Below, piece after piece: positions 1,136-63,570 of a stretch of 64,000 nucleotides of DNA (the first letter of the stretch is position 1; each line of letters begins with the position of its first letter). The stretch is taken from contig CBDASK010000003.1 in assembly GCA_965199495.1 (NCBI GenBank), forward strand, positions 288,001 to 352,000. The letters run 5' to 3'. A program made the translations under genes and the position numbers. The notes beneath the pieces were generated by a model. That model saw nothing but the letters and a program-made list of their open reading frames with translations, was not told the DNA's origin and ran no database searches. Source of the DNA: Abditibacterium sp. (lineage in GTDB: Bacteria; Armatimonadota; Abditibacteriia; Abditibacteriales; Abditibacteriaceae).

Positions 1136-4100
1136 ATGAATATTCTGGCTGGCTGCCGTGTGCTGGAAACGCTGCACGAAGATCCGAAAACGGGGATTTA
1201 CCGCGCTCTGCGCAATACCGAAAACGGCGAACAACGCGTCGTCCTCAAAACTTTGCGCGCCGCGCATCCGCCGCTCGAAGATGTCGCGCAACTGCGCCAC
1301 GAGTTTCAGATCGCGCGCAATTTGCCGCTCGACGGCGTTTTGCAGCCGCTCGATTTGTTACAGCACGAAAATAGTTTCGTGCTGCTGCTCGAAGATTTCG
1401 ATGGCGTTTCGCTCCACCAATATCTCAAAAAACACGCGCCAGACGGACTCAGTCTCGACGGGTTTTTCCCGCTCGCGCTCAACTTGGCCGAAACCATCGG
1501 TCAAGTTCACGCGCACGGCGTGATTCATAAAGATATTAAACCCGACAATATCTTTGTCAACGCGCAAACCGGGCAGTTGAAATTGGGCGATTTCGGCATC
1601 GCCTCGCAGTTGGCCAGCGAAACGCCCGTCGCCCAGAGCTTGCGCCAGATGCAGGGCACGCTCGCCTATATGTCGCCCGAACAGACCGGGCGCATGAATC
1701 AGCCCTTGGACTATCGCAGCGATTTTTATTCTCTCGGCGTCACGTTTTACCAAATGCTGACGGGCCGCTTGCCTTTTGAGTCGGACGACGCGATGGAATT
1801 GGTTCACGCGCATCTGGCCCGCACACCAGCCACGCCGCCCGATGTTGCGCCGATGCTGAGCGCAATCGTCCTGAAATTGCTCGCCAAAACAGCCAATGAA
1901 CGTTATCAAAGCGCCGCCGGACTGCGCGCCGATTTGGAGGAGTGCCGCGCGCAGTGGACAAGTAACCAAACAATCGAACCATTTAAATTGGCGCGCTTTG
2001 ATCGCTCCGACGAACTGCATATTTCGACGCGCATTTATGGGCGCGACGCTGAAATCGCCATTTTGCTGGACGCCTTCGAGAGCGCGGCGCGTGGCGCGCG
2101 CGAACTGGTGATGGTCGCGGGCTATTCGGGCATCGGCAAAACTTCGGTTGTCGGCGAAATTCATAAACCGATTGTGGCACGGCGCGGCTGGTTCGCGCAG
2201 GGCAAATTCGACCAGTTCCGCCGCGACTCGCCTTACACGGCTTTGATTCAGGCGTTTCGCGAATTGATTCGGCAAGTGCTGACCGAAAGCGAGGAACAGT
2301 TGGTGCGCTTCAAAGCCGAATTGCTCGAAGCGTTGGGGGCAAACGGCCAACTGCTCATCGAAGTTATCCCTGAAATCGAACTAATTACCGGGCCGCAACC
2401 GCCGGTGGCTGCATTAGGGCCGCAGGAATCGCTCAATCGCTTCAACTTTGTTTTGGGCCAGTTCGTGCGCGTGTGGGCGCAAGAACAGCATCCGTTGGTT
2501 TTGTTCCTCGACGATTTGCAATGGGCGTCCGACGCGTCGCTGCGACTTTTGCAATCGCTAATCACTGACCGGCAATCGCATCATTTGTTGATCGTCGGCG
2601 CCTACCGCGACAACGAGGTTTCGGCCTCGCATCCGCTCGTTCTGACGCTCGATGAAATTCGCGAAAGCGGCTTGTCGCCACGCGAAATCACGTTGGGGCC
2701 GCTCCCACCGCAGTGCATCGAACAGTTGGTCGAGGACAGCCTACACTGCTCGCCCGAACAATCGAAACCGTTGGCGGCGCTACTGGAGCAGCGCACGCAG
2801 GGCAATCCGTTTTTTCTCAATCAACTGCTCAAATCATGGTATGAGAACAAGTTAATCGTCAGCATAAATGGGCGTTGGAGTTGGGATTTGGAAGTTTTGG
2901 GCGCGCTGAACCTCATCGGCGATGTCGTCGAATTGATGGTTGGCAAAATCCAGACTTTGCCCGCCGCGACGCAGGAAGTGACGAAGCTGGCGGCGTGCAT
3001 CGGCAACCGTTTCGACGCGCGCACCCTGGCGACGGTGCGCGAGACCGAGGCCGCGCAGGTCGCCGCCGATTTGTGGGACGCGCTGCGCGCCGGATTGATT
3101 TCGCCTCTGGGTGGCAATTATCAAAGCGCGCAATTGGCCGACGAATCGAACGTCGCTTATAAGTTTCTGCACGACCGAGTGCAACAGGCGGCTTATTCGC
3201 TGGTGAGCGACGACGAGCGCGGTGCCCTTCATCTCCAAATCGGGCGTTTGCTGTTGGCCGACGCAGCCACGCGCGACGAGCGATTGTTCGATATCGTCGG
3301 ACATCTCAACGAGGCGCGCGCGCTGATAACCGACGGCGACGAACGGCACAACGTCGTGCGCTTGAACTTGGAAGCGGGCCTCAAAGCCAAAGAAAGCGCC
3401 GCTTATGGCGCGGCCATCCGTTATTTCGCCATCGCGCAGGAAATCGCGCCCGCGATGTTGTGGCAAAGCGATTACGCTCTGATGTTCCAAATGGCGCGCG
3501 AGCGTTCGCAGTGCGAGTATTTGGAAGGCCATTTCGAGCAGGCCGAAGCGCAGTTTGAACTCGCCTTGAAGCACGCGCGCAATACGTTGGATCGAGCGGC
3601 GATTGAGACGATTCGCGTCAGTCTTTACACGACACGCAACGATTACGAGCGGGCGATTGCAGTGGGATTGGAGGGACTGGCGGCGCTGGGATTGCGTCTG
3701 CCACCCGATCCCACTCAGATGGCGGTGATGCGAGCATTACTCACGGCCAAGTGGCTTCAGGGACGCCGCGCCATTCCTGACATTATAAATCTTCCGCAGT
3801 TGCAAGACGCGCGGATGCTGGCCCAAATGGAACTGCTGTCTTCGATGACACCAGCGCTTTATCTCAATAATAGTCAGGGTCTCTTCGCGCTGACGAACTT
3901 AGTTATCGTCAATATTTCTTTGCGACACGGCAACGCGTTGTGGTCGGCTCACGGCTACTCGCTTTATGGCGTGTTGCTGGCTTCGGCGCTGGGCGATGCC
4001 AAAAAGGGCATTGCGTTCGGCGAAATGGCGATGCGACTTTCCGATCAATTCGATGGCGTCGCCGAACGTTGCAAGGCGCATTTCTCGACGGCGTGTTACC

Positions 4101-6478
4101 TACTCCACCATCACCGTCCCTTACGTGAAACCAACGCTCCCTTGGAAGAATGCTACCGTTTGGGAATTGAAGCGGGCAACACGGTTTACGCGGGTTACTC
4201 TTTGATGAATGCGTCTTCTCATATCTCGTTGCAGGGCACGAATTTAGAAAGCGCGGATGAAGAATTTGAAAAGTATCTGCCGTTTTTACGCGAAGCAAAC
4301 GACGCCGATCAGATCATGATGACGCTCATCAGTCAGCAGATGGGACGCAATCTGCGCGGATTGACCGAAAATCAGGGTTCTTTGAGTAGCGACGACTATG
4401 ATGAAGCTGCGGTTGTCGCCGCGATAGCAGCCGGCAAACACGCGCCCTCGACTGAGTGTTGGTATTACATCACTAAAGCGCGCCAGCATTATTTCTGGGG
4501 CGAATATCCCGCCGCGCTCGCAATGGCGCGTGAGGCGCAGCGCTTGAGTTCCGCATTGCTGGCGACGCCCTACATACCGGAGCTGAATTTTTTCCACTCA
4601 CTGACGTTGGCCGCGCTTTACTCCGACGCCGACGAAAAAGAGCGGGTAAGATTTTGGAAGCAGTTGCGCAAAAACCAGATTCAGATGGAAAAGTGGGCGG
4701 CCAACTCGCCCGCAAATTATCGGCATAAATACCTGCTCGTCAAAGCCGAAATGAACCGGCTCAAAGGCTGCGACAGCGAAGCCGCCGCATTGTATGACGC
4801 CGCGATTCGCGCCGCGCGCGACGCCGAATATACGCAGAACGAAGCCCTCGCCAACGAACTCGCCGCGCGCTTTTACCAATCGCACGACCGCAAGACGCTG
4901 GCAAGTTCTTACTTTGATGAGGCGCGCTATCTCTACGCAAAGTGGGGCGCCCATGCCAAAGTCGCGGCGCTCGATGCAGCCACGTCGCCCGACATTGCGC
5001 CGCAATCGCTCAACCCACAACGCACAACGGGCGGTGCGAACGTAGATAAATCGTCTCAACTCGATTTGTCCACGGTCATCAAAGCCTCGCAAGCGATTTC
5101 AGGCGAGATTGATCTGGGCCGCTTGCTGCAACAACTTTTGCGATTTGCTTTAGAAAACGCCGGAGCCACGCGCGGCGCGCTGATTTTGCGCCGCGACAAT
5201 CAATTTTTCGTCGAAGCCGTCGGCGCCAGCGAAGAAACCGAGATGGCTTTGCCGTCGCAGCCGCTCGAAGAATGCGGAAATTATCTGCCGCTTTCGGTTG
5301 TGCAGTTCGTGGCGCGCACGCGCGAAAACGTGATGCTCAACGACACGGCGCATCAGAAAATTTTCGCGGGCGATCCGTATCTGGCCAAGCGCGATATCAA
5401 ATCGCTATTGTGCGCGCCGATTGTGCATCAAACCAAACTCAACGGCCTGATTTATCTGGAAAACCATCTGGTCGCGGGCGCCTTCACGCCGCAGCGATTG
5501 GAAGTTTTGGGCGTGCTGTCGGCCCAAGCCGCGATTTCGCTGCAAAACGCGCGCTTGTATGAACAGCTCATGGATTACAGCCTGACGCTCAAACAACGCG
5601 TGGCCGAACGCACCGCCGAGTTAAGCGCCAAAAATGGCGAGTTGGAGGACACGTTGCGCGAACTTCAACAGATGCAAGAGCGAATTATTGTGCAGGAAAA
5701 AATGGCGTCTTTGGGCGCGTTGACGGCGGGCATCGCGCACGAAATCAAAAATCCGCTCAACTTCGTTAATAATTTCGCCCTGCTTTCGGTGGATTTGGCG
5801 GGCGAACTGCGCGAAGAAACCGACAAATTGATGGCCGATGCGGACGACGAAACGCGCGCTTATCTGGGCGAAATCTTGGACGATTTGCAGGGCAACGCGC
5901 GCAAAATCAGCGAACACGGCAAGCGCGCCGATAGCATCGTGCGCGGAATGCTGTTGCACTCGCGCGGCCAAGTCGGCGCGCCGGAACCGACCGACATCAA
6001 TGCCCTCGTTCACGAAGCCGTGCAGTTGGCCTATCACGGCCAACGCGCCCACGATTCGAGTTTCAATATTTCCATCGAAGAAAATTATGACGAGAATATC
6101 GGGAAAGTCAAAGTTTTGCCGCACGAAATTAGCCGCGTGATTTTGAATTTGGCCAACAACGCCTGTTATGCGGCTGGCAAAAAAGCCGAGCGTCTGCGCG
6201 GCGCAGGCGACACCGCGTTCGCGCCGACGATGCGGGCGACAACGCGCATGATCGGCGAGAACGTGGAAATTCGCGTGAGCGATAATGGCGACGGCATTCC
6301 CGATGAGGCGCGCAAAAATATCTTCACGCCGTTTTTCACCACCAAGCCGACGGGCGAAGGCACGGGACTGGGCCTTTCGATGAGCTACGAAATCGTAGTG
6401 CAACAGCACGGCGGGCAAATGAGATTCGAGAGTTCGGTTGACGCGGGCACTGTATTCATCATACAATTGCCGTGCTAA
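1136..6478 (+). CDS. Ser/Thr kinase - AAA ATPase - GAF - histidine kinase fusion (1780 aa)
   Basis: HKDIKPDN and DFG kinase motifs, Walker [20 protein letters not shown] region (LIYLEN), H-box [11 protein letters not shown]-boxes DNGDG and GTGLGL. Confidence 0.95.
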
Positions 6479-6539: not shown

Positions 6540-8285
6540 ATGTCCCACAAAATTATAATCTTGGGCGGCGGCGTGGCTGGTATGAGTGCCGCGCACGAAT
6601 TGGCCGAGCGCGGCTTTGAAGTCGAAGTTTTCGAGCAAAACACGGTCGCTGGCGGCAAGGCGCGCAGCGTCGAAGTGCCGGGCACCGCGCAAGACGGGCG
6701 GCCCGGTTATCCGGGCGAACACGGTTTTCGCTTTTTCCCGCGCTTTTATAAGCACGTCACCGACACGATGAAGCGCATTCCGTTCGGCGATGGCGGCGCC
6801 AGCGTTTATCACAATTTGGTCGGCACCAGCCGCATCGAAATGGCGCGTTTCGATTTGCCACCGTTCACCATGAGCGCGCGTTTTCCGCAGAGTCTGGAAG
6901 ATTTTCTGCTAATTATTCACAACACTTTCGGCGATAGTCTGGGCGTGAGCAAAGACGACCGCGAATTTTTCGCCGCGCGCGTCTGGCAAATTCTCTCCAG
7001 TTGCCAGCAGCGCCGCGACGACGAATACGAAAAAATAGATTGGTGGAAATTCATCGAAGCCGACACGCGGAGCGAAGCCTATCAACACGTTTTCGGGTAT
7101 GGTCTGACGCGCTCGCTCGTGGCTTCTAAGGCGAATTTGGCTTCGACCAAAACCGTCGGCGATATTTTGGTGCAACTGCTTTTTGATGCGCTCGAACCGG
7201 GCATTTCCAGCGACCGCGTTTTAAACGGCCCGACCAACGATGTCTGGATCGAGCCGTGGATGAAGCATCTCGAATCAATGGGCGTGAAGTATCATCGCGG
7301 CGCCAAAGTCGTGGGCATGAGCATCGAAGGAAATCAAATTACCGGCGCGACAATCGAGAAAAATGGCGAGAAATTGGAAGTCGCGGGCGATTATTTTATT
7401 GCGGCGTTTCCCGTCGAAGTGATGGCGCAGTTCATCCGCGAGACGCCCGCGCTGAACGACAATCCGAATTTTGCCAGCATCGTCAAGCTGGGCTGTAACG
7501 TGGCCTGGATGAACGGCGCGCAGTTTTACTTGCGGAGCGATGTGCCGATTTGCAACGGCCACGTCATCTACATTGATGCGCCGTGGGCGTTGACTTCGGT
7601 TTCGCAGCACCAGTTTTGGCCCGATGTGGACTTGAGCCAATACGGCGACGGCAAAGTCAAAGGCATTTTGTCGGTTGATATTTCCGAGTGGGGCGAGCCG
7701 GGTTTAAACGGCAAAGCTGCGCGCGACTGCACACGCGAAGAAATCAAAGCCGAAGTCTGGGCGCAACTTCAACGCAGCCTAAACACCGATGGGCAAATGG
7801 TTTTGCGCGACGAAGATTTGCACGATTGGAGTTTGGACAGCGACATCGTGTTCGACGAAGAACACGCGCAGGGCGAATTGGCCTGTCACGCGGCGCAGAC
7901 GTTGAGCGCGCAGACTTCGAGCAACAAAACCAAAAATCGCGAGCCGTTGCTGGTAAATTTGATTAATACGTGGCAACTGCGACCCAAGGCGCACACGGCG
8001 ATTGAGAATTTGTATCTGGCTTCGGATTACGTGCAGACTTTCACCGACTTGGCGACGATGGAAGGCGCCAACGAAGCCGCGCGCCGCGCGACCAACGCCA
8101 TCATTGACGCGGCGGGCGTGGCTGTTGCGCCGTGTACATTGTGGCAGTTGCATGAGCCGGATGTTTTGATCCCGTTTCGCGCCTACGATTGGGCGCGCTA
8201 CAAGTTAGGGTTGCCGTGGCAAAAGCCGCTGGGCGCGAGCGCGAAAACGTTGGATACGCTGGAAGAGCTGAAAGAAATTTTGTAG
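6540..8285 (+). CDS. FAD-dependent oxidoreductase, carotenoid desaturase/HpnE-like family
   Basis: GGGVAG Rossmann motif, GGKARS, GEHGFRFFP, C-terminal LYLASDYV and ATMEGA. Confidence 0.8.
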   Translation: MSHKIIILGGGVAGMSAAHELAERGFEVEVFEQNTVAGGKARSVEVPGTAQDGRPGYPGEHGFRFFPRFYKHVTDTMKRIPFGDGGASVYHNLVGTSRIEMARFDLPPFTMSARFPQSLEDFLLIIHNTFGDSLGVSKDDREFFAARVWQILSSCQQRRDDEYEKIDWWKFIEADTRSEAYQHVFGYGLTRSLVASKANLASTKTVGDILVQLLFDALEPGISSDRVLNGPTNDVWIEPWMKHLESMGVKYHRGAKVVGMSIEGNQITGATIEKNGEKLEVAGDYFIAAFPVEVMAQFIRETPALNDNPNFASIVKLGCNVAWMNGAQFYLRSDVPICNGHVIYIDAPWALTSVSQHQFWPDVDLSQYGDGKVKGILSVDISEWGEPGLNGKAARDCTREEIKAEVWAQLQRSLNTDGQMVLRDEDLHDWSLDSDIVFDEEHAQGELACHAAQTLSAQTSSNKTKNREPLLVNLINTWQLRPKAHTAIENLYLASDYVQTFTDLATMEGANEAARRATNAIIDAAGVAVAPCTLWQLHEPDVLIPFRAYDWARYKLGLPWQKPLGASAKTLDTLEELKEIL

Positions 8286-9757: not shown

Positions 9758-10596
9758 TCACGCTCGCCGCAACGTAAACACTGCGATTTCGGGCCGCACG
9801 CCCAAACGCATCGGCACGCCGATTGTGCCCGCGCCGGTCGAAACGTAAAGTTTGGCGTCACCAACGCAATACCAGCCACGTTGAAGGAACGATTGGCCCG
9901 CATCAACTGGCGATATCCGAAAACGCGCGGGCAAAGCGACTTGTCCGCCGTGCGTATGTCCGCTCAAAATCAGAGCGTTGCGATTACGCACAATAACGCT
10001 AATCGTGGATTGTGACTGAGAATAAGGTGCGCTTCATCGGGCGATACGCCCGCCGTGGCTGCATGAAGGTTGGGGAAACCGGCGCGCAAATCGTCAGCGC
10101 CAATTATCGGCAAACCGTTGGGCAAACGCGTATTTTTATTCAAAAGTGAAACGACGTTGGCGAGCGCCAGAATGTCGGCGATGGGGCCGAAATCTCCATT
10201 CCACAAATCGTGATTGCCCGGCACGGCGTAAATACCAAGTTGCGGATTTAAAATTTCGAGTTCACACGCTAAATCAGCGGCGTAGTCCGTGACAGTGCGC
10301 GCCAATTTGCGCAGGCCCGGCGGATAGGAATTGCGACGTGTGACGACATCGCCGGTTAAAACGACGGCATCGGTGTTTTGTGACGCGCAGAGTTTTATAA
10401 TGCGGCGAATAAGCGCGCCTGGCATCCATAAACCGGCGTGAATATCGGAAATTTGAGCGACGCGTAAACCGTCGCATTCCGTTGGTAGATTGGGCAGCTC
10501 GACATCGAATTTGCGCACAGCCACGCGCCACGGTTCGGCGAGCGCGTAGGCGAATGTTGCGGCGGCGGCGTATTTTATTAACTGCAACGTGGGCAT
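9758..10596 (-). pseudogene. YkuE/YaeI-like metallophosphoesterase split by a frameshift near 9990
   Basis: SDIH, GD, GNHD and SHNP motifs in ORF 9970-10596; SGHTHGGQ and RPEI in overlapping ORF 9758-9991. Confidence 0.8.
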
Positions 10597-10605: not shown

Positions 10606-10789
10606 GCCCCCTCCCCAACCCTCCCCCGTGCCGGGAGAGGGAGCTATCTCTCGGTCGCCGAAATACTACTGAGTTTTCTTCAAAGTAGAAAAACGGCGCC
10701 GTCCCATAATGTTCAAGCAAGTTGCGATACCTAACAGCGGCCTTGACGTGGCTCCCTCTCCCGGCACGGGGGAGGGCTGGGGTGGGGGC
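10606..10789. repeat. BoxC-like inverted pair (39-bp arms, 2 mismatches)
   Basis: GCCCCCTCCCCAACCCTCCCCCGTGCCGGGAGAGGGAGC ... GCTCCCTCTCCCGGCACGGGGGAGGGCTGGGGTGGGGGC; related to 43935-44181. Confidence 0.8.
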
Positions 10790-14246: not shown

Positions 14247-16049
14247 ATGAGCCACTCTTTCGATTTCCCCCAATTCTTTTCCGCCCGCGATGACATCACG
14301 GGCGGATTTGGCGATTTGGGGAACAATGAGGAGCCAGAGAAAAATCCGCCGGACGAAATAAGCGAAATCACCGCCGACTCTTTCGCCAGTTTGCCTTCGG
14401 ACAATCCCGCCGATAATCCGCTTGGCTCGTCAGTGGAAGAGGGTAGCGGCTTGCCTTCGGCTGCGGAACTTGAGCAAACTTTGCAACGTTTGATGCGCCG
14501 CGTTTCGATGTTGGTGCAGGCCGAAAAGTGCGTGTTTCTGCTGCACGACCGCGACAGCCACGAGCTGGTGGCTCGTCCGCCAGCATTGGGATTTTCGCGC
14601 GAGCAGTTGCGGGCTTTGCGCTTGCCGCTCGACGAGGGCGTGGCTGCTCAGGCGTTTCGCGGCGGCACAGCGATTGTTGTCGAGAACGAGGCCAGCTTTA
14701 GCGAAAGCGACGCCGCGTGGGCCAAGGCGTTGGATGCGCGCAACCTCATCGCGTACCCGTTGGTGTTGGAGCGCCGCGACGAACACGAACACATCGCAAC
14801 TAATGTGACTGTCGGCGTGTTTCTGGTTCTCAATAAGCGCGGCAAATCGGGATTCACGCCCGAAGATTTGCATCTGCTTTCGGTGATGGCGCGCCAAGTC
14901 ACGGCGGTTATCGCCGACGCGCAGATTTATCTGCAACTCACCGAAGAAAAAGAGCAGCTCGCCGCCACGCTGCAAAGTCTGGGTTCGGGCGTGCTGATGA
15001 TCGAACCGACCGGCCATATCTCGCAGTTCAACGCCGCCGCGCGCGCTCTCTTTGGCGTGCCCGAAGGCATCGGCTTGGGGCGTCCCTTCGATGAAGTGAT
15101 TCACGAACCACAAATCGTTGAACTGCTGCACACCACGCTCAAGGACGGCAAAGAGGGGCGCGCCGAACTCGAAATCGAATTGCCCGGCAACCACGAGCCG
15201 CGCATATATCAGGCGCAGACGACTTTGGTGCGCGGTGAAAAAGGCGGATTTCCAGAGGTTTTGGGGTTGGCGACGATCTTCACCGACATCACCGAAATTC
15301 GCAACGTCGAAAGGATGAAAACCGCCTTCGTCTCGACGGTTTCGCACGAGTTGCGCACGCCGCTCACTTCAATCAAAGGTTTCGTTTCGACGCTGTTACA
15401 AGATACCGAAGGCTACTTCGATACCGAAACGCGACAGGAATTTTATGGGATTATAGATAACGAATGTGACCGATTGAAGCGTTTAATTGATGATTTACTC
15501 AACGTCTCGCGCATCGAATCGGGGCGCGCGTTGCAGATGCAGTGGGGCACGTTCGAGCCGTTAGCCATCATCGAAAAGGTGATGCAGGCGCAACGTTCTT
15601 ACACCGACAAACACCGCTTGATTTTAGATTTCAACGGCGAAGTGCCGCAGATCGTCGGCGACGCGGACAAGTTCGATCAGATTTTGACGAATCTGATTTC
15701 TAACGCCATCAAATATTCGCCGCTCGGCGGCGAAGTGCGCGTCGAAGTGGACGCTTCCGATCACGATCTCACCCTCAGCGTTAGCGATCAGGGCATCGGC
15801 TTGCCCGCCGATAAATTGTCGCGCATCTTCGAGAAATTCGAGCGCATTGACAACCGCGATACCCGTCAGGCGGGCGGTACAGGCATTGGTCTTTTTTTAG
15901 TCAAACATTTGGTCGAGCGCCACGAAGGCACGATTTCGGTGAGTTCGACAGTCGGTAAAGGCACGACTTTTACGGTTCATTTGCCTCTGCGCCCCAGAGA
16001 AGCCGCCGCCGAAGCGCAGGCCGACGCCGACGAAGATGCGCGCAAATAG
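14247..16049 (+). CDS. GAF/PAS sensor histidine kinase
   Basis: GAF region (LVLNKRG..FT.ED), PAS (FNAAA), SHELRTPL, NAIKYS, GTGIGL. Confidence 0.92.
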   Translation: MSHSFDFPQFFSARDDITGGFGDLGNNEEPEKNPPDEISEITADSFASLPSDNPADNPLGSSVEEGSGLPSAAELEQTLQRLMRRVSMLVQAEKCVFLLHDRDSHELVARPPALGFSREQLRALRLPLDEGVAAQAFRGGTAIVVENEASFSESDAAWAKALDARNLIAYPLVLERRDEHEHIATNVTVGVFLVLNKRGKSGFTPEDLHLLSVMARQVTAVIADAQIYLQLTEEKEQLAATLQSLGSGVLMIEPTGHISQFNAAARALFGVPEGIGLGRPFDEVIHEPQIVELLHTTLKDGKEGRAELEIELPGNHEPRIYQAQTTLVRGEKGGFPEVLGLATIFTDITEIRNVERMKTAFVSTVSHELRTPLTSIKGFVSTLLQDTEGYFDTETRQEFYGIIDNECDRLKRLIDDLLNVSRIESGRALQMQWGTFEPLAIIEKVMQAQRSYTDKHRLILDFNGEVPQIVGDADKFDQILTNLISNAIKYSPLGGEVRVEVDASDHDLTLSVSDQGIGLPADKLSRIFEKFERIDNRDTRQAGGTGIGLFLVKHLVERHEGTISVSSTVGKGTTFTVHLPLRPREAAAEAQADADEDARK

Positions 16050-40382: not shown

Positions 40383-40681
40383 ATTTGGGCAATTTCAGAG
40401 AATGGCAGATGACGTTGCGCGTCGTCTGCCATTTTTAATTACAATCGGGTTATTCGCAAATAGGCCGACAGTTTTCCTGTCGTCCCAAAGTGAAGGACAT
40501 TTGCGCGCGAAAATGTGGCATGCTTTTGGAGAATCCATTATTGAGGCTTTGCACCTAACTTCTGCTGCCGGGCGGCGTGGCTGATGTTGTCAGAGAACAA
40601 AATTGATTGGCGCAATACATTGGACGGAGCAACTCAATTACTATAAATTATAAGGTGAATTTTAGTTCATAGGAGGCCGAT

Positions 40682-45817: not shown

Positions 45818-48097
45818 ATGATCGAAGAAGTCACCGAACTTGCTGGCGACACGTCCACAAGGACGCTCGCCCCCACCGAAGCCACCGACACCGCCAGCGA
45901 AGGCGCGTCCGCCGAAAAGCCCAAGCGCCGTCGCGTCACCAAGAAAAGCGCCGACGCCGAATTGCCCCTCGAAGGTGTCGAAACCGACGCGAGCGCCGAA
46001 GCCAAACCCAAACGCGCCCCGCGCAAAAAGAAAACCGACGAAGCCGCGCCCGCAAAGGTTGAACCCACAAACGCCGACGAAGCCGCGCCTGCCAAACCCA
46101 AACGCGTGACACGAGCCAAAAAAGTCGCGGAGCCAACAGACGAAGTTCAAAATCCCGCTCCAGTTGAACAAACGGCATCCAATGCTCCGGCCTCTTTTCA
46201 GGTCGCGCCCGCCGTAGCGATGGGTAGCTTTACGCCCGCGCCCGCAGCGCCAGTTGAACGCGAAGAGAATCGCGAAGTTTCGACGCGCGCGCGCCGAACC
46301 CATCGCGACGACGATGTAGCCACGGCGCCCGGTAACGAGGCGCCGAGCAATGGCGAGAGTAGCGCGCCAGCCGAAAACAACGAAAATGCGAACACCGAAA
46401 ATCGCGGCGAAAACGCTGACGACGATGATTTTCGCAACAGCCGATTAAGTTATCGCGACCGTCGCGCGATGCGCCGCGAACAACGCATCGTTTCTCGTTC
46501 AGGCCGCGAAGAAGGCGAAACTGTCACGGGCGAAACGAACGGTGAAGCGCGCGCGCCACGCCCGCGCGAAGAGCGCGATGACCGTCCCAATAATCGCGAC
46601 AACGATAACCGCGATAATCGGGGCGAGCGCAGTAATCGCGATAATAACAATCGCAACGACCGCAACAATCGCGGCGACAATCGTAACGACCGTAATAATC
46701 GTGGTGATAACCGCAATAATCGTAACGACAACCGGAACGACCGCAATAATCGCAATGACCGCGAACCTCGTGAAGCCCGCGAATTACGCGAGCCGCGCGA
46801 CAATCGGCGCGAGCGCAACGGCAGTCGTGGGCGCGAATACGATTTGCCGCAGCTTCAAGAAATGGATGGCGAGGCTTTGATGGCCGTCGTCGCCGAGTTG
46901 AATATGGAAGCGGCGCCCGGCGAAAAAGACGCGTTGATTTACGCGATTTTGGAAGCGCAGGCGGGCGCGCAAAATGCGATCCTGAAAAAAGGGATTTTGG
47001 AGATTTTGAACGACGGCAAAGGCTTTTTGCGGTGCGAAAATTATTATCCCAGCGAAGGCGATGTCTACGTCTCGCAAACCCAGATCAAACGTTTCGGCCT
47101 CAAAACTGGCGACGAAGTTCTGGGCACGGCGCGCGTGCCCAAGGAAAACGAGCGTTATCACGGTTTGTTGCGCGTCGAATCTATCAACGGATTGAGCATC
47201 GAAGAATCGCGCGGGCGCCTCAATTTCGAGAAGCTAACGCCGATTTTCCCGACCGAACGGTTCTCGATGGAAACCGAGCCGGGCAACATTACGGCGCGCA
47301 TCATTGACTTGATTTCGCCAATTGGCAAAGGTCAGCGCGGCTTGATCGTGGCGCCGCCCAAAGCGGGCAAAACGACGCTGATTAAAAATATCGCCAACTC
47401 GATTACCGAAAATAATCCCGAAGTTTTGCTGTTCGTTTTGCTGATTGACGAGCGCCCCGAAGAAGTCACCGATTTGTCGCGCAGCGTGCGCGGCGAGGTC
47501 GTGGCTTCGACGTTCGACGAAGTGCCGGAAAACCATATTCGCGTTTCCGACATCGTGATGGAACGCGCTAAACGTCTGGTCGAAATGGGCCACGATGTCG
47601 TGGTTTTGATGGACTCGATTACGCGTTTGTCGCGTGCCTCGAACTTGGTCGTTTCGCCGTCGGGCCGCACCATGAGCGGCGGTTTGGATCCGGCGGCGAT
47701 GTATAAGCCCAAGCGTCATTTTGGCGCCGCGCGCAACATCGAAAACGGCGGCTCGCTGACGATGCTCGCCACGGTTTTGGTGGACACTGGCTCGCGCATG
47801 GACGATTATATTTTCGAGGAACTCAAGGGCACCGGCAACCTCGATTTGGTTTTGGACAGAGATTTGTTCAACCAGCGCATTTTCCCGGCGATTGACATCA
47901 ACCGCAGCGGCACGCGCCGCGACGATTTGCTGCTCAACAAAGAGGAACTGGCCGCGACCTTCCATCTGCGCCGCACGCTCGCCGCCCTCGATAACGACAA
48001 AGCCGTGATGCTGTTGATTGATCGGTTGAAAAACACCAAGTCGAACGCCGATTTCATGGAAGTCGTGGCGAAATCGCAGCGCAATCAACCGGCGTAA
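45818..48097 (+). CDS. rho: Transcription termination factor Rho with long disordered N-terminus
   Basis: DVYVSQTQI, PIGKGQR, APPKAGKT, DERPEEVT, RIFPAID. Confidence 0.97.
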   Translation: MIEEVTELAGDTSTRTLAPTEATDTASEGASAEKPKRRRVTKKSADAELPLEGVETDASAEAKPKRAPRKKKTDEAAPAKVEPTNADEAAPAKPKRVTRAKKVAEPTDEVQNPAPVEQTASNAPASFQVAPAVAMGSFTPAPAAPVEREENREVSTRARRTHRDDDVATAPGNEAPSNGESSAPAENNENANTENRGENADDDDFRNSRLSYRDRRAMRREQRIVSRSGREEGETVTGETNGEARAPRPREERDDRPNNRDNDNRDNRGERSNRDNNNRNDRNNRGDNRNDRNNRGDNRNNRNDNRNDRNNRNDREPREARELREPRDNRRERNGSRGREYDLPQLQEMDGEALMAVVAELNMEAAPGEKDALIYAILEAQAGAQNAILKKGILEILNDGKGFLRCENYYPSEGDVYVSQTQIKRFGLKTGDEVLGTARVPKENERYHGLLRVESINGLSIEESRGRLNFEKLTPIFPTERFSMETEPGNITARIIDLISPIGKGQRGLIVAPPKAGKTTLIKNIANSITENNPEVLLFVLLIDERPEEVTDLSRSVRGEVVASTFDEVPENHIRVSDIVMERAKRLVEMGHDVVVLMDSITRLSRASNLVVSPSGRTMSGGLDPAAMYKPKRHFGAARNIENGGSLTMLATVLVDTGSRMDDYIFEELKGTGNLDLVLDRDLFNQRIFPAIDINRSGTRRDDLLLNKEELAATFHLRRTLAALDNDKAVMLLIDRLKNTKSNADFMEVVAKSQRNQPA

Positions 48098-48186: not shown

Positions 48187-49845
48187 ATGTGGCAACGATT
48201 CACCGAGCGCTCGCGGCGCGTTATTCTGCTCGCTCAGGAAGAAGCCGGAAAAATGAATTCCGGCCATGTCGGAACCGAACATTTATTGCTGGGTTTGGCG
48301 CGCGAAAACGAAGGCATCGCCGCGCAGGTTTTGGTCAAAATGGGCGTCTCGCTCGCCAAAGTGCGGGCAGAAATCGAAGGAGAAGTCCAATCCGCCCACG
48401 ACCCGACGGCGGGCGAGCCGAAACTGACGCCCAAAGCCAAACGCGTGTTGGAACTGGCCGCAGACGAAGCGCGCCGGATGAAGCACAATTATATCGGCAC
48501 AGAGCATTTATTACTGGCGCTCTTGCGCGAAAAAGACGGTTTGGCCGCCACAGTTTTGCGCCGTCTGGGCCTTAATCTGGAAAAGGCACGCGCGCAGGTC
48601 ATGGAATATCTCGTCCCAGATCGTCCTGAATTAGCAGCGGCGAATCCGTTCGGCGAAGAACGCGGCCAACTCGCTGGAAGCATGAGTTGGACGAGTTACG
48701 CTGATCGCGCCCGGCGCGCGGTTTTGTTGGCGCAGGAAGAGGCTTTGCGATTGCAATCGAGCCACGTCGGAAGCGAGCATTTGCTGGTGGGTTTATTGGT
48801 CGAAGGCGACGGCGTGGCTGCTCACGCGCTCCGACATTTGGGCGTCGAATTGGAAACCGTGCGGCCACTCATCGAGGTGGAAAGCGAATGGGCGCCGCTT
48901 GCGGTGAGTGAACCCAAACTCACGCCCGAAGCCAAGCGCATTTTGGAGTTCGCCGTCGTCGAGGCGCGTCGCTTTCGGCGCGCGACCGTCGGCACCGAAC
49001 ATTTGTTGCTGGCGCTGATGAACGAAGAAAACGGAACGGGCGCCGCGATTTTGCGCGAATTAGGCGTTGATTTGCACGAAGCGCGCGCGATAGTTTTCGA
49101 TTTTGCTGGGCCAGTCGAAGCGCCGCCCGACCCGCTCGAACTCGCGCGCGAAGAGCAGCCACGGCCAACGCAGCGCGGGCGCGAAGACAAACCCGCGCTG
49201 TGGAAACGGCTCGATGACGACGCCAAACGCGCGCTCCAATTCGCACAGCAAGAAGCGGCTTTGCGGCGTTACGCCAATGTCGGCAGCGAACACATTTTGC
49301 TCGGATTATTGGCCGCAGAGCAAAGCGTCGCCGCGCAATTGCTGCACGCGCGCGGGATTTTTCTGCCGCAACTGCGCGCGCACATCAAAACTCGCGTGCC
49401 CGATGGAAACGATGTCGTGACAGACGAAGCGCAGTTCGATGATAAAGCGCTCGAACTTTTGAAGCGCGCCGCCGCCGAAGCCAAAGGTATGGGACACAAT
49501 GCTATCGGCACCGAGCATTTGTTGCTGGCTTTGTTGAGCGATAAAAGCAGCATTGCGGCGCAAATCGTCGCGCAATTAATAGACGAAGCGAACGATTTGG
49601 AAGCGCGCCTCAACGCGCGCTTGGCGCCCGCGACCGAGTTCGCGCAGGTCTCGCCCAGGTTCGCGCTATCGTCGCAAACGATAAACGTTTTAGAACTCGC
49701 CGCCGCGCAGGCGCATCGCTTGGGCGAGCCGGAAATCACGCCCGAAATTTTGTTCGCCGCTTTGCTAAGAGTGGCCGACGACAAAATGGAAGCGATTCTC
49801 AAACAGGCCAAAAAGAACAACGAAGCGCGCGAAAAAAGCGATTGA
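48187..49845 (+). CDS. Clp N-terminal repeat protein with about 7 repeats and no ATPase domain
   Basis: Six G(T/S)EH(L/I)L motifs plus a degenerate seventh; first 142 aa differ from ClpC at only 11 positions. Confidence 0.9.
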   Translation: MWQRFTERSRRVILLAQEEAGKMNSGHVGTEHLLLGLARENEGIAAQVLVKMGVSLAKVRAEIEGEVQSAHDPTAGEPKLTPKAKRVLELAADEARRMKHNYIGTEHLLLALLREKDGLAATVLRRLGLNLEKARAQVMEYLVPDRPELAAANPFGEERGQLAGSMSWTSYADRARRAVLLAQEEALRLQSSHVGSEHLLVGLLVEGDGVAAHALRHLGVELETVRPLIEVESEWAPLAVSEPKLTPEAKRILEFAVVEARRFRRATVGTEHLLLALMNEENGTGAAILRELGVDLHEARAIVFDFAGPVEAPPDPLELAREEQPRPTQRGREDKPALWKRLDDDAKRALQFAQQEAALRRYANVGSEHILLGLLAAEQSVAAQLLHARGIFLPQLRAHIKTRVPDGNDVVTDEAQFDDKALELLKRAAAEAKGMGHNAIGTEHLLLALLSDKSSIAAQIVAQLIDEANDLEARLNARLAPATEFAQVSPRFALSSQTINVLELAAAQAHRLGEPEITPEILFAALLRVADDKMEAILKQAKKNNEAREKSD

Positions 49846-49868: not shown

Positions 49869-50552
49869 ATGTGGCAACGATATACCGAACGCGCGCGGCG
49901 CGTTATCTTGCTGGGTCAGGAAGAGGCCGGAAAGATGAACTCCAGTCACGTCGGCACCGAGCATTTGCTGTTGGGACTCATCAGACATCCCGATTGCAGC
50001 GGCGCGCGCGTGTTGCAGCAAATGAGCGTTTCGCTTGACGGAGTGCGCGAACAGGTTGTCGCCCAAATGGCACCGGCGACGCAGGCTTTCGGCGGCGAGC
50101 CAAAACTCACGCCCAAAGCCAAACGCGTCCTGGAATTGGCCGCCGACGAAGCGCGCCGTTTGCGTCACAATTATATTGGCACCGAACATCTTTTGCTGGC
50201 GCTCTTACGCGAGAAAGATGGTTTGGCGGCGACAGTGCTGCGCCAATTGAACCTCAATCTGGAAAAGGTGCGCTCGCAGGTTACAGAGTATCTCGATGAT
50301 ACCAACGCGCCGATAGCAGCCACGGCGGCGGCCAACGAAAGCGTCGCGCAGTTTCGCGTGGCGCCCGCCGTGCGCGATGCGCTCAATTTGGCGATGCAGG
50401 AAAGCCGAGAAGTGGGCGCGGATCAAATCGAAATCGCTCAATTGCTCCGCGCGCTGTGCCAGCCCGGTAGCGAAGGCGCGCGCTGCTTGGAAGGCCTCGG
50501 CGTGGATGTGCCAAAATTATACGCGAGTTTGCGCGGCGCCCGCAGCGATTAA
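49869..50552 (+). CDS. Clp N-terminal repeat protein with about 3 repeats and no ATPase domain
   Basis: AAGGAG RBS, MWQRYTERARR, two GTEHLLL motifs plus one degenerate repeat. Confidence 0.88.
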   Translation: MWQRYTERARRVILLGQEEAGKMNSSHVGTEHLLLGLIRHPDCSGARVLQQMSVSLDGVREQVVAQMAPATQAFGGEPKLTPKAKRVLELAADEARRLRHNYIGTEHLLLALLREKDGLAATVLRQLNLNLEKVRSQVTEYLDDTNAPIAATAAANESVAQFRVAPAVRDALNLAMQESREVGADQIEIAQLLRALCQPGSEGARCLEGLGVDVPKLYASLRGARSD

Positions 50553-52589: not shown

Positions 52590-55205
52590 ATGTGGCAAAG
52601 ATTTACTGAACGCGCCCGTCGCGTTATTCTGCTCGGACAGGAAGAAGCAGGCAAAATGAATTCGGGCCACGTTGGAACCGAACATTTGTTGCTCGGACTC
52701 GTGCGCGAAAACGAAGGCGTCGCCGCGCAGGTTCTCACCAAAATGGGCGTTTCGCTGGCCAAAGTGCGCACCGAAATCGAAGGAGAAGTCCAGCCCGGCT
52801 CCGATCCGACATCGGGCGAACCGAAACTGACGCCCAAAGCCAAACGCGTGTTGGAACTGGCTGCCGACGAAGCGCGCCGGATGCGCCATAATTATATCGG
52901 GACGGAACATTTGCTTTTGGCGCTATTGCGCGAGAAAGACGGATTGGCGGCGACGGTTCTGCGCCGATTGGGCTTGAACTTGGAAAAGGCGCGCGCGCAG
53001 GTCATGGAGTATCTCGGCCCCGAAGCGCCCGGTAGCGAAGGCGAACGCGGCCCGGAAAAAGCGGGCGTCGGCGGTGGCCGCGAGGGCAATGAGCGCGGCG
53101 AACGCGGTGGCAAAACCGGTCGCTCGCAAACGCCCGCGCTCGATTCGTTCGGTCGCGACATCAACCAACTGGCCCAGGAAGGCAAACTCGATCCGGTCAT
53201 CGGGCGCGAGGCGCAGATTGATCGCGCGATTCAGATTTTGTGTCGGCGCGGCAAGAACAATCCGGTTCTGGTCGGCGAACCCGGCGTCGGCAAAACTGCG
53301 ATCGTCGAAGGTTTGGCGCAGCGCATCGTCTCGCGCGACGTGCCCGAACCTTTGTTGGACAAGCGCATCATCGCGCTCGATTTGGCAAACGTCGTGGCGG
53401 GCACCAAATATCGCGGCGAATTTGAAGAGCGCATGAAGCGCATTATGTCCGAGATTCGCGCGAGCAACGGCAAAATTATCGTCTTCATTGACGAGTTGCA
53501 CACCATTATCGGCGCGGGCGCCGCCGAAGGCGCCATTGACGCCAGCAATATGCTGAAACCGGCTCTGGCGCGTGGCGAAATGCGTTGTATGGGCGCGACA
53601 ACGTTGGACGAATATCGCAAATACATCGAGAAATCGGGCGCCTTAGAGCGTCGTTTTCAGATGGTTTTGGTGCCGGAACCGACGGTGGAAGACACGATTG
53701 AGATTCTGAAAGGCTTGCGCGGGCGCTACGAAGATTTTCACAAAGTTCGCATCACCGACGAGGCGCTCAAGGACGCAGTGGATTTGTCGCAGCGTTACAT
53801 CACGCAGCGCCAGTTGCCCGACAAAGCGATTGACTTGATTGATGAAGCCGGTTCGCGCGTGAAATTGCGCGTGGCTTTGCCGCCCAAAGAAATCCGGGAA
53901 CTGACGCGCGAGTTGGACGAAATCAATACGCAGAAGGAAGATGCGGTCAACTCGGACGAATACGAGAAAGCAGCCACGTTGCGTGACAAGGCCAGCGAGT
54001 TAGAAGACAAGTTGACCGAAGCGCAGGAGCGTTGGCAGGCCGAGCGCGAAGAAGAAGAGGGCGACGACCAACCGACCGTCACAGAAGACGACATCGCCTC
54101 GATTGTCTCAGAGTGGACGGGCGTGCCAGTTAAGAAATTGACCGAGGCCGAAACCGCCAAATTGCTGCGTATGGAAGACGACCTGCACGAGCGCGTCGTT
54201 GGTCAGCACGAAGCGATTAAAGTTGTGTCCAAAGCCGTGCGTCGTGGTCGCGCCGGGTTGAAAGACCCGAAACGTCCGATTGGCGTGTTCATGTTCGTCG
54301 GCCCAACCGGTGTCGGCAAAACCGAGTTGGCCAAAGCTCTGGCCGAGTTCTTGTTCGACGACGAAAGCGCGCTGATTCGTCTCGATATGAGCGAGTATTC
54401 CGAGCATTTCAACGTGTCGCGGATGCTGGGTTCGCCTCCCGGCTATGTCGGCTACGACGAGGGCGGACAGTTGACGGAAGCGGTGCGTCGCCGGCCTTAT
54501 TCGGTCGTGTTGTTCGACGAAATCGAGAAGGCTCACCCCGATATTTTCAACACGCTGTTGCAAATTTTCGAGGACGGTCGCCTCACCGATTCGCAGGGTC
54601 GCGTGGTGGATTTTAAGAACACTGTCATCATTATGACGAGTAACGTCGGCACGGCGGATTTGGGCAAGGGCATCGGTTTCCGTGGTGGCGAGGACGCGAA
54701 TGGCGAATCGGATTCGGCGTATCGCGCGATGAAGGGCAAAGTCATGGACGCCTATAACAAGGCGTTTCGCCCCGAACTGCGCAACCGCATTGACGAAGTC
54801 ATTGTGTTCCATCACCTCGACCGCCAAGAGATTTATCAAATCGTGTCGCAGTTTTCCAAGCGCATTACCGACGAGGTCGTGCGCCGCGATATGCAACTCG
54901 AATTTCTGCCGCGAGCCGTCGAACTGCTGGCTAAAGAAGGTTATGACCGTCAGTTCGGAGCGCGCCCGTTGCGTCGCGCCGTGCAGCGATTGGTCGAAGA
55001 CCCGTTGGCCGAGCGGTTGTTGATGGGCGAATACAACGCGGGCGAAACGGTTTATGTGGACGCGCAAAACGGCGAAATGGTGTTCACGACCGAAAAACCC
55101 GAAGATGGCGGCGAACTGCCGGTGGCTGTTGGCGCTGACGGTGAGGGCAACGAGCCACCGTCGAGCGATGACGAGTTGACGCTCAATAAGTTGATGAGCG
55201 AATAA
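52590..55205 (+). CDS. clpC: ATP-dependent Clp protease ATP-binding subunit ClpC
   Basis: N-domain, GEPGVGKT, short UVR-type M domain ([10 protein letters not shown]), [11 protein letters not shown] ClpP-docking loop. Confidence 0.95.
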
Positions 55206-55429
55206 TTGTTGGATCAAGTAAGCGGCCCGTCTTGAAAAAGGCGGGCCGTTCTTGTTTTTAGGATAGATTCCAAGGCATCCAACGCGCGTGAACTGGAACT
55301 GTGCCGCGTGGCTCAACGGTTCCGATGGTTGAAGATTTCCGCGGGCTACGCCAGACTACGCAAATACCTTATGTTAAGCCCGGTAAATATGAAAATCGCC
55401 GCCAGTTCCCAAATCCTTTTGAGATGTGT

Positions 55430-56752: not shown

Positions 56753-57175
56753 ATGGCTACAAACGATAACATTCAACACGGAATAGATGACGATCCCAAC
56801 AACGATGCAACCAAAGGTGGCATCGGCGGCGCCGTTGGTGGCGCGGTTGTGGGCGCATTAGCGGGCGGCCCGGTTGGCGCCGTGGTTGGCGCTGTCGCGG
56901 GCGGCGTGGCTTCGGCGGCGGGCGTCGCGGCAGTTGATGCTGTGGACAACGATAACAACATCAGTGGCGTCGGCCACGGCGTGACGCGCGATGTCGGAGA
57001 TCAGGTCGCTGACGCGACTTATGGTGGCGTTCGCACGCCCGGCAACGATGTGCCCGGCGTGCAGACTGGCGGCGTGACAACGGCGGGCGCCGACACGCGT
57101 GGCATTAGCGAGAAAGTCGCTGATGCCGTGACCGGCGATAATGTCGATGACAAAACCGGCGGACGCGTCATTTGA
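56753..57175 (+). CDS. Acidic glycine-zipper protein
   Basis: AGGAG RBS; GxxxG repeats; shares motifs with 23666-24670 and 24660-25061. Confidence 0.85.
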   Translation: MATNDNIQHGIDDDPNNDATKGGIGGAVGGAVVGALAGGPVGAVVGAVAGGVASAAGVAAVDAVDNDNNISGVGHGVTRDVGDQVADATYGGVRTPGNDVPGVQTGGVTTAGADTRGISEKVADAVTGDNVDDKTGGRVI

Positions 57176-59306: not shown

Positions 59307-59543
59307 TCAGTTCTTTTCGCTGAACTCGCGCATCAAGCGTTCGATGCGCTCCAATTTCTTCTCGCACGATTCGATAATTTTATCGGCTTTCTCGCCCGGC
59401 GAAGCCTCCAAGGCCGCGCGAACACGGGCGCGCCACATATAAGTCGAAATCGCCGCTCCAGCCAGCACACCAAGAGCCACGCCGCCATAAACCAACAATT
59501 CGTTCGCTGGCTGTTGCGCATTTTTACCGCCCGGTGCGGCCAT
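59307..59543 (-). CDS. Small single-TM hypothetical protein
   Basis: TM segment plus charged coiled tail; followed by a palindromic terminator at about 59236-59267. Confidence 0.65.
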   Translation of the reverse strand: MAAPGGKNAQQPANELLVYGGVALGVLAGAAISTYMWRARVRAALEASPGEKADKIIESCEKKLERIERLMREFSEKN

Positions 59544-63431: not shown

Positions 63432-63570
63432 AGTGCCCACAGTGTGCGCGCACACTGCCAGCGCCGTCAATTGAAAATGCGCGATTGAAAGTGCCGAAAC
63501 TCGAAGAAACGACTTTCTCTTCCCCGATGCAGCCACGCCGTCGGGCGACGTGGCTGCATCGAGGGGCAAG

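Follow-up and report, generated by a model that had tools for sequence, protein, structure and literature searches.

An abundant non-palindromic DNA word in three Abditibacterium genomes, with orientation-dependent spacing and a possible role as a self-DNA tag

The subject of this work is a short DNA word that recurs throughout a 64,000-nucleotide stretch of Abditibacterium sp. (GenBank assembly GCA_965199495.1, contig CBDASK010000003.1, positions 288,001 to 352,000). We refer to the whole of this stretch as the window (C3:288001-352000). Its genome (G000) consists of a 4.72-Mb contig and two small contigs (24.7 and 64.6 kb), and is 55.7% G+C. Genes were taken from 3879 calls by a crude self-trained scorer of open reading frames (ORFs), some of which are wrong (e.g., 21826-23572). 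A sequence-only reading of the window had reported 23 copies of the 9-mer CGTGGCTGC and about 60 copies of the 7-mer CGTGGCT (about 28 on the plus strand and 33 on the minus strand). An exact word search on both strands recovered all 23 of the 9-mers (11 plus, 12 minus), each at the coordinate and on the strand given for it, and 61 7-mers (28 plus, 33 minus). In 100 dinucleotide-preserving shuffles of the window, the 9-mer occurred 0.84 times on average (maximum 6) and the 7-mer 8.34 times (maximum 18), close to the zero-order expectations of about 1 and about 10 in that reading. The sites are listed below by window position; G011, G004 and G003 are genomes of relatives.

1828..1834, minus strand: 7-mer, exact match
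3263..3271, minus strand: CGTGGCTGC 9-mer
4976..4984, minus strand: CGTGGCTGC 9-mer
5164..5170, minus strand: 7-mer
6572..6578, plus strand: 7-mer
7118..7124, plus strand: 7-mer
8117..8123, plus strand: 7-mer
9874..9880, minus strand: 7-mer
10054..10062, plus strand: CGTGGCTGC 9-mer
10519..10525, minus strand: 7-mer
10747..10753, plus strand: 7-mer
11334-11340, minus strand, and 11360-11366, plus strand: close inverted 7-mer pair within a peptidase C26 gene
13335..13343, minus strand: CGTGGCTGC 9-mer
14556..14562, minus strand: 7-mer
14639..14647, plus strand: CGTGGCTGC 9-mer
17368..17374, minus strand: 7-mer
18268..18276, plus strand: CGTGGCTGC 9-mer
19125..19131, minus strand: 7-mer
19839..19847, plus strand: CGTGGCTGC 9-mer
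20151..20157, minus strand: 7-mer
21135..21141, plus strand: 7-mer
22352..22360, minus strand: CGTGGCTGC 9-mer
22444..22452, plus strand: CGTGGCTGC 9-mer
23962..23970, plus strand: CGTGGCTGC 9-mer
24481..24487, minus strand: 7-mer
24607..24613, plus strand: 7-mer
27072..27078, minus strand: 7-mer
27555..27561, plus strand: 7-mer
28347..28353, minus strand: 7-mer
32276..32284, plus strand: CGTGGCTGC 9-mer
32884..32892, minus strand: CGTGGCTGC 9-mer
33512..33518, minus strand: 7-mer
34549..34555, minus strand: 7-mer
36835..36843, minus strand: CGTGGCTGC 9-mer
38819-38827, minus strand (9-mer), and 38835-38841, plus strand (7-mer): close inverted pair near the 3' end of a SASA esterase gene
39920..39926, minus strand: 7-mer
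40576..40582, plus strand: 7-mer
42780..42786, minus strand: 7-mer in guaA, common to G011, G004 and the outgroup G003
42848..42854, plus strand: 7-mer in guaA, in G000 only; five relatives have CGTCGCT or GGTCGCT
43079..43087, plus strand: CGTGGCTGC 9-mer in guaA, common to G004; three outgroups are without it
44387..44395, minus strand: CGTGGCTGC 9-mer in a DUF559 gene
45242..45250, plus strand: CGTGGCTGC 9-mer
46318..46324, minus strand: 7-mer in rho
47500..47506, plus strand: 7-mer in rho, common to G011; others have GTCGCC or GTCGCT
48760..48766, minus strand: 7-mer
48813..48821, plus strand: CGTGGCTGC 9-mer
49155..49163, minus strand: CGTGGCTGC 9-mer
50316..50324, minus strand: CGTGGCTGC 9-mer
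51633-51639, plus strand, and 51648-51654, minus strand: intergenic inverted pair, 8 bases past a GH43 gene; a potential hairpin, no T-run behind it
53870..53876, plus strand: 7-mer in a clpC-like gene, in G000 only
53970..53978, minus strand: CGTGGCTGC 9-mer in the clpC-like gene, common to G004, not G011
55307..55313, plus strand: 7-mer at the start of an acyltransferase ORF
56605-56611, plus strand, and 56619-56625, minus strand: close inverted pair at the 3' end of the acyltransferase gene
56905..56911, plus strand: 7-mer
59475..59481, minus strand: 7-mer
63529-63537, minus strand, and 63549-63557, plus strand: inverted CGTGGCTGC 9-mer pair, intergenic by the gene calls

The abundance of the word extends over the 4.72-Mb chromosome, which contains 4533 copies of CGTGGCT, 3083 copies of the core 8-mer CGTGGCTG (about one per 1.5 kb) and 1780 copies of CGTGGCTGC. 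The commonest 11-mer and 12-mer genome-wide are CGCCGTGGCTG (1051 copies) and GCAGCCACGGCG (690 copies). Enrichment persisted under a maximal-order Markov model, in which 3384 copies of CGTGGCT were expected, and CGTGGCT and GTGGCTG had the highest z-scores (37-39) of all 7-mers. A sequence logo built from 6390 GTGGCT sites had information confined to positions -4 to +8, about 12 bases. The consensus in G000 is C-G-n-C-GTGGCT-G-C-(T), with a weak c at position n (CG-c-C-GTGGCT-G-C) and GTGGCT as the strict core. The G000 word is a short word and not a piece of a longer repeat. It is not palindromic, as its reverse complement, CAGCCACG, differs from CGTGGCTG.

We controlled for codon usage with 20 synonymous-codon shuffles inside each called gene. 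Relative to these, the 8-mer was enriched 3.5- to 24-fold in each of the six frames (10.5-fold overall), and the 11-mer was enriched 55-fold. Only 10.2% of alanine codons are GCT, a rare choice, and 2089 of the 11745 Val-Ala pairs were encoded by GTG-GCT, compared to 425 expected. Most of the 8-mers in G000 (2851 of 3083; 92%) were in called genes, with 222 in intergenic DNA and 10 on a boundary. The intergenic DNA (47.7% G+C) should have had 14-16 copies of the 8-mer and 0.3-0.4 copies of the 11-mer under Markov models of orders 1-3; the 222 8-mers amount to a 14-fold enrichment, as high as in genes, and 79 11-mers were found.

A word of this sort could be a by-product of composition or of codon-pair or dipeptide preference, with nothing reading the DNA. 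Consistent with that idea, two contexts account for 2069 of the 3083 copies (67%), sense xxC-GTG-GCT-Gxx and antisense xCA-GCC-ACG, which correspond to Val-Ala-x and Ala-Ala-Thr, both common peptides. The idea is contradicted by the enrichment in six frames and between genes, by the use of a rare alanine codon, and by three properties described below: absence of the word from 24 of the 27 family genomes, which have like composition, an orientation-specific spacing that was not seen with control 7-mers, and conservation of silent positions beyond background. We give it almost no chance of being correct. Codon or dipeptide bias as the source of the word was ruled out by the synonymous shuffles, the intergenic excess and the excess of GTG-GCT. 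The sequence-only reading had called codon bias a poor explanation on the basis of the frames VAA, AAT, SH and AWL in the window. Its judgment agrees with the enrichment in six frames after codon-preserving shuffles and with the intergenic excess; xVAx, AAT, SSH and AWL are all present genome-wide, and the enrichment survived every codon and Markov null that we tried. The results support the conclusion that the word is a DNA-level, lineage-specific signal and not a product of codon bias.

The 8-mers were evenly distributed over 12 chromosome bins and were balanced between the strands (1525 plus and 1558 minus), as expected from the description of a non-palindromic, strand-balanced word in the window. 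At the best GC-skew split, 52% of the copies were on the "leading" strand, with skew near nil and the origin not firmly placed. There is thus no strong leading-strand bias, and the even bins together with the 52% figure ruled out a skew of the type found for Chi or for the FtsK-orienting polar sequences (KOPS).

The word is depleted from mobile and accessory DNA. The two small contigs, C1 and C2, had two and six 8-mers compared to 16 and 42 expected at chromosomal density, a 7- to 8-fold depletion. On the chromosome, the longest intervals without the motif are grouped at C3:1.12-1.22 Mb. The motif-poor region there (C3:1115001-1230000) encodes three large serine recombinases, a type I restriction-modification system, TIR and KAP NTPase proteins, RelE toxins, a transposase, a 2097-amino-acid (aa) STAND-like protein and a DnaE2-type polymerase. 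It also has a DISARM-like set composed of an SNF2 helicase, a 1432-aa Eco57I-type methylase and a 1980-aa DEAD helicase with a PLD-like end. This region is accessory DNA, a mobile and defence island. Within the window, no 7-mer lies between 34555 and 36837, an interval that includes an IS630-type DDE_3 fragment (35922-36230), and the acyltransferase gene (55301-56638) has 7-mers at its two ends only (55307, and 56605 with 56619). The observation that the motif is absent from the IS630 element and from the acyltransferase gene body was therefore accurate.

We looked for the word in 27 genomes of the family, including G000. Thirteen are in the same genus (three with the motif and ten without) and 14 are of other genera. 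The 8-mer was about 10 times as frequent as its reversed control in three of the 27 (3091 copies in G000, 2676 in G011 and 3503 in G004) and was at the control level in the other 24. The 11-mer had the same three-genome pattern over 31 relatives up to phylum level. G000, G011 and G004 are one another's closest relatives by nucleotide identity: in DNA orthologous to the window, identity to the window was 84-91% for G011 and 81-87% for G004, and 75-82% for G006, G003 and G009. A comparably abundant word was not seen in a 200-kb sample of G012, a sister genome without the motif. Words such as GCTGATGCTG in G012 were rejected as candidates because they belong to a tandem repeat at a single place and are not genome-wide. 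At loci L120-L121 of G012 (C1 ~1,039,800-1,040,100), GCTGATGCTG-type units are densely arrayed in tandem, and this array dominates the k-mer ranking of that sample.

The spacing of the word depends on orientation. Among the 3082 pairs of nearest-neighbor 8-mers in G000, 37% had the same orientation, compared to 51-54% in a set of four control 7-mers with similar copy numbers, and for neighbors 40-500 bp apart the proportion was 20-23%. The pair correlation for copies in the same orientation was 0.23, 0.33, 0.54, 0.78, 0.81 and 0.94 in successive 250-bp bins and about 1 from 1.5 kb. For copies in opposite orientations it was about 1 at all distances, and convergent pairs were as frequent as divergent pairs. 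Inverted pairs were enriched 3.4- to 4-fold at 10-20 bp, and 7-mer pairs within 40 bp of each other were inverted in 136 cases and direct in 15. The mean spacing in the same orientation was 3.06 kb, approximately one copy per 3 kb per orientation. In the window, 15 of the 60 neighboring pairs had the same orientation, and a 200-kb sample of G011 repeated the exclusion (23 of 69 neighbors at 60-2000 bp in the same orientation). Control 7-mers of equal length had no exclusion, so the effect is not due to a general avoidance of direct repeats. Copies in the two orientations do not substitute for each other: within about 1-1.5 kb, one copy makes a further copy on its own strand superfluous. The confinement of the exclusion to the same orientation suggests a reader that recognizes one strand.

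The three genomes differ in the bases that flank the core. G000 and G011 favor CGcC upstream and GC downstream, and G004 favors GGAC upstream and G[G/C]TGTC downstream, i.e., GGACGTGGCTG[G/C]TGTC. The G004 form GGACGTGGCTGGTGT was found 69 times in 256 kb of G004, three times in all of G000 and not at all in 200 kb of G011. Occurrence of the word is restricted to these three genomes, and G004 has a flank dialect of its own. The long form in G004 is often in intergenic inverted pairs, and many of its copies are 19-mers that start with GTAG and are arranged as inverted doublets with a spacing of about 33 bp, where the sequence did not align to G000.

A GTAG head and inverted doublets are hallmarks of repetitive extragenic palindromic (REP) sequences and of REPINs, the elements formed by REP doublets. 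The G004 form raises the possibility that the word is derived from a REP sequence and is the recognition or cleavage site of an enzyme acting on single-stranded DNA (ssDNA), a REP-associated tyrosine transposase (RAYT) of the HUH kind. Two copies on the same strand in one ssDNA gap at a replication fork would be cut and joined with deletion of the intervening DNA, and selection would remove close same-strand pairs. An exclusion that is same-strand only and extends to 1-1.5 kb would fit the size of such gaps, and the lack of exclusion for control 7-mers argues against a more general cause. Y1_Tnp genes are present (eight matches in G000), and G000 also has a classical REPIN family whose head is GTAG. 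The model accounts for the exclusion but not for the 10- to 55-fold enrichment. Moreover, the 2851 genic copies of G000 are in all frames, and point substitution at orthologous positions, not insertion, gave rise to the copies. We consider this explanation very unlikely. RAYT was rejected as a clade-specific link, as Y1_Tnp is widespread (25 of the 27 family genomes).

The classical REPIN family, possibly a family of miniature inverted-repeat transposable elements (MITEs), is represented in the window at ~498-620 (C3:288497, plus, and 288585, minus) by inverted cGTAGAGACACCGACTTGTCGTGTCTAAAA arms about 86 bp apart. The chromosome has 294 GTAGAGAC arms, each with its own hairpin, and the family is also found in G004 (14 copies of GTAGAGACACCG in 256 kb).

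To follow the origin of individual sites, we compared orthologous DNA. In four orthologous window genes, eight of nine sites were missing from all three outgroups, and the differences between sites and outgroups were mostly at third codon positions, e.g., GTG GCT compared to GTC GCC. Over 129 kb of alignment between G000 and G011 (85.2% identity), 63 sites were shared, out of 75 in G011 and 93 in G000, compared to 37% sharing for arbitrary 8-mers and 41-57% for similar control 8-mers with at least 21 sites. Between G000 and G004 (80% identity), the shared sites were 27 of 49 and 27 of 88, compared to a background of 28%. From the third-position differences and the sharing above background, we conclude that silent substitutions created the sites, which then persisted, subject to turnover and lineage-specific gains. 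A force acting on the DNA word itself overrides codon preference, conserves silent positions and spares recently acquired DNA.

A base asymmetry was also noted. In comparisons of window positions 37001-56700 with contigs of relatives from three sequencing runs (X1, X2 and X4), T in the window with C in the relative outnumbered the reverse by about two to one (108 and 56, 257 and 125, and 217 and 135, respectively), and A/G differences were symmetric. The T/C asymmetry may reflect GCT-type gains in genes that are mostly on the plus strand.

Spread by substitution inside genes at about one copy per kb is also known for HIP1, the highly iterated palindrome of cyanobacteria. The Abditibacterium word could likewise be the target of an asymmetric methyltransferase, a nickase or a short-patch repair system, with biased repair making matches from near-matches, or the marked word could be a per-strand discrimination signal with a reach of about 1 kb. 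G000 has several methyltransferases, and a mark on one strand would make the orientations non-equivalent and could explain per-strand coverage of about 1 kb. In addition, 16 of the 18 one-mismatch variants of the core were below the codon-shuffle null (0.15- to 0.98-fold), although the codons of the motif itself inflate that null and the deficit is not specific to C-to-T products. The word is not palindromic, and we know of no methylation site that is enriched 10- to 55-fold for a reason of modification. Among the 13 genomes of the genus, eight of which have C5 methyltransferases, no such enzyme stood out as confined to the clade; with no clade-only pattern, C5 enzymes were rejected as a clade-specific partner. 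DUF559, which has a Vsr-like fold and is encoded beside a repeat in the window, was rejected too, as it is widespread (20 of the 27 family genomes). A modification or repair word is, in our view, quite unlikely.

The DUF559 gene of the window (44209-44544) encodes a Vsr-like domain, and G004 has 10 matches to DUF559. Upstream of this gene, window positions 43986-44130 (~145 bp) match many G011 and G004 contigs on both strands, and are therefore a dispersed palindromic repeat.

A polar reader could also be an end-processing helicase-nuclease that moves from a break or from the end of incoming DNA and reads a Chi-like word on one strand, whereupon it switches from degradation to recombination. 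Two-ended breaks need both orientations everywhere, and coverage per orientation is then what counts. Several properties of the word agree with such a role. The exclusion is orientation dependent and recovers approximately linearly to about half of the 3.06-kb same-orientation spacing, as might result from selection for even per-orientation coverage. Opposite orientations are mutually independent, and there is one copy per 3 kb per orientation, mostly in genes and depleted in foreign DNA. With GC skew near nil, a replichore bias need not be expected. G000 also encodes a 1421-aa nuclease-helicase with PD-(D/E)XK and superfamily 1 helicase domains (C3:4111365-4115630). This Dna2-like protein is not confined to the clade, as similar long frames are present in G016 and G017. 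RecC (PF04257) was found in none of the 27 family genomes. An operon of AddB-like (1072 aa, PD-(D/E)XK) and AddA-like (1079 aa, UvrD) proteins, as at G009 locus L174:4065-10544 on the minus strand, is present in all ten genomes of the genus that lack the motif, and was not found in the three motif genomes or the 14 genomes of other genera; the pair was either lost by the motif clade or gained by the rest of the genus. We rejected this anticorrelation as a link, because absence from 14 motif-free genomes makes it insufficient. The lack of replichore skew (52% "leading") and the 10- to 55-fold enrichment, which is above the level known for Chi of E. coli, also count against a Chi-like signal. 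So do the 200 kb of G012, where a universal repair signal should have a counterpart word and none was seen, and the close inverted pairs and REPIN-like pairs of G004, which have no place in the model. On balance, a Chi-like signal seems rather unlikely.

The reading that we favor, and hold tentatively, is that the word is a lineage-specific self-tag for uptake or recombination that is read on one strand. It is the best reading because the genomic pattern is one known from two other groups of words, the DNA uptake sequences (DUS) of Neisseriaceae and the uptake signal sequences (USS) of Pasteurellaceae, together referred to here as DUES (PMC1939737, PMC3630211, PMC2817400, PMC2397512, bioRxiv 10.1101/2025.10.24.684340). 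Point substitutions, mostly synonymous, would write the word into the chromosome, and a force acting on the DNA itself, most likely preferential uptake or recombination of word-bearing DNA, would keep it there. This molecular-drive logic has been proposed for the DUS of Neisseriaceae and the USS of Pasteurellaceae. The reader probably sees one strand only, either as ssDNA or as DNA processed in one direction; it could act on ssDNA at import or integration, or could be a translocating enzyme. One copy would serve about 1-1.5 kb of its own strand, so that a second copy nearby would gain nothing on the same strand and would still gain on the other. A one-strand reader would produce the exclusion pattern that we observed, including the equal frequency of convergent and divergent pairs, and a saturating receptor for duplex DNA would not. 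It is the uptake or recombination function, the strand specificity of the reader and the reader's identity that we infer. G000 has genes that such a system could use. One operon encodes PilB, a PilT-like ATPase, PilC, the prepilin peptidase PilD and three pilin-like proteins, and there are further T2SSE ATPases and secretins, a ComEA-like HHH_3 protein, ComEC and DprA.

Several findings weigh against an uptake tag. The pilus and competence genes are generic and common in bacteria. The search for com and type IV pilus genes thus found the general machinery but no clade-specific (ComP-like) pilin: all three pilins of the operon have orthologues in G009, G012 and G006, which lack the motif. The operon pilins were rejected as a clade marker, since they occur in motif and non-motif genomes alike and give no presence/absence signal, and prepilin-like matches number 58-145 per genome. 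The 8-mer is half as dense between genes (0.34 per kb) as within them (0.70 per kb); DUS and USS are described as being in non-coding DNA more than expected (PMC1939737). Of the 136 close inverted pairs in G000, 114 are inside called genes and not at terminator positions, and 22 are intergenic. G004 has no exclusion beyond the close inverted pairs (50 of 101 neighbors at 60-2000 bp in the same orientation). Uptake by Haemophilus is reported to be independent of orientation (PMC1939737); the exclusion seen here, a genomic proxy for the action of the word, depends on it. If a receptor for double-stranded DNA became saturated, copies in either orientation should be excluded alike, so that exclusion per strand needs an extra assumption. 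As a control, we analyzed 682 kb of non-redundant Neisseria-type metagenome contigs with 748 DUS 10-mers, 368 of them outside close pairs. The share of same-orientation neighbors was 0.24 at 60-250 bp (10 of 41) and then 0.52, 0.42, 0.51 and 0.46, compared to 0.22, 0.23, 0.37, 0.43 and 0.49 for G000 in the same bins; the DUS numbers are small, and DUS may have a weaker long-range effect. Of the proposal in the sequence-only reading, a lineage-specific self-DNA signal, the lineage-specific signal at the DNA level and the DUS/USS-like pattern held up; the orientation-dependent exclusion, the lower intergenic density and the failure to find a clade-specific pilin are departures from DUS and USS.

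A stronger form of the self-tag reading is possible, though we are doubtful of it: that this is the first self-tag for uptake or recombination to come from outside the Proteobacteria, read on one strand, with the orientations forming two independent, evenly spaced populations that each provide about 1-1.5 kb of cover. To our knowledge, sequence-tagged self-recognition of DNA is firmly known in two proteobacterial families only. Abditibacterium is placed in the phylum Abditibacteriota, and a third case would lie in that barely studied phylum. It would point to transformation or repair having a sequence-specific ssDNA step (for example, strand choice, protection or recombinase loading) that has no known reader protein. 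Because the word arose inside a single genus and is missing from the closest sister species, it would be possible to date when such a system began. Comparison of the three motif genomes and the ten others in the genus could reveal the reader, and the system would let drive and selection be tested as causes of the spread of the word. Orientation-specific exclusion is a simple genomic statistic that can separate one-strand from duplex readers and could be applied to other "genome words". In practice, the word marks foreign DNA in these genomes. In the literature searched, we found no publication containing the word in either orientation, and none on genome words among the Abditibacterium papers listed.

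Other features were noted in the course of the analysis. A 1780-aa protein encoded at window positions 1136-6478 combines a Ser/Thr kinase, an AAA_16 (STAND-type) ATPase, a GAF domain and a histidine-kinase ATPase domain. In the Rho protein (45818-48097; 759 aa), a long N-terminal extension precedes the Rho domains, which start at residue 391. Next come a 552-aa protein of six Clp_N repeats (48187-49845) and a second Clp_N protein (49842-50552). In G004, locus L091 (contig C1, 7886 bases) has 107 copies of a repeat containing TAGGGTGCTATTCCGGCT at a spacing of about 73 bp, and is probably a CRISPR array that fills the whole of this small contig. Lichen and rock metagenome runs gave small shares only (0.10 and 0.06), and no inference about habitat was drawn.

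We compared the word to known systems. KOPS and other architecture-imparting sequences have a strong replichore skew towards dif, which the Abditibacterium word does not. REP sequences and REPINs are extragenic and palindromic and spread by transposition. The G004 long form resembles them in its GTAG head and intergenic inverted doublets, and a REPIN family and Y1 transposases are present alongside it; in contrast, 92% of the G000 copies are in called genes and arose by point change at orthologous sites. The likeness to HIP1 is that of a hyper-abundant 8-mer, about one per kb, spread by substitution in genes. HIP1 is a palindrome, whereas the Abditibacterium word lacks this symmetry, and copies in its two orientations act as distinct populations. 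Like Chi, the word is an over-represented 8-mer, mostly genic, that marks self DNA, and its orientation-dependent behavior suggests a polar reader. It differs from Chi in having no leading-strand bias and an enrichment above the level known for Chi, and in that RecC was not found in the family or the AddAB-like operon in the three motif genomes.

The closest likeness is to DUES. These are short, non-palindromic, strand-equal words at about one per kb, with no replichore bias, located in genes in several frames and between genes, with inverted hairpin-forming pairs, clade dialects in the flanks, rarity in mobile DNA and associated pilus and competence genes (PMC1939737). The Abditibacterium word is also short, non-palindromic, strand-equal, in the class of about one per kb and free of replichore bias. 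It is found in several frames within genes and between genes, with some inverted pairs able to fold; close inverted pairs were intergenic in 22 of 136 cases in G000 and in many cases in G004. It is clade-specific, has flank dialects, is rare in mobile DNA and occurs with pilus and competence genes. The match to DUS and USS holds for abundance, balance, clade range, dialect and depletion from mobile DNA. The differences are that a minor pilin of the ComP type would be the expected receptor, and no clade-specific pilin was found among the three of the pilus operon; that the word is sparser between genes than within; that it is present in three species of one genus and not in the whole family; that it is in another phylum; and that exclusion in the same orientation extends to about 1.5 kb, compared to below 250 bp only in the DUS sample (682 kb). 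Such an orientation-dependent spacing rule is not described for DUES. The Abditibacterium word is thus DUES-like in most genomic respects, and what is new is its phylum, its very recent origin and its spacing rule.

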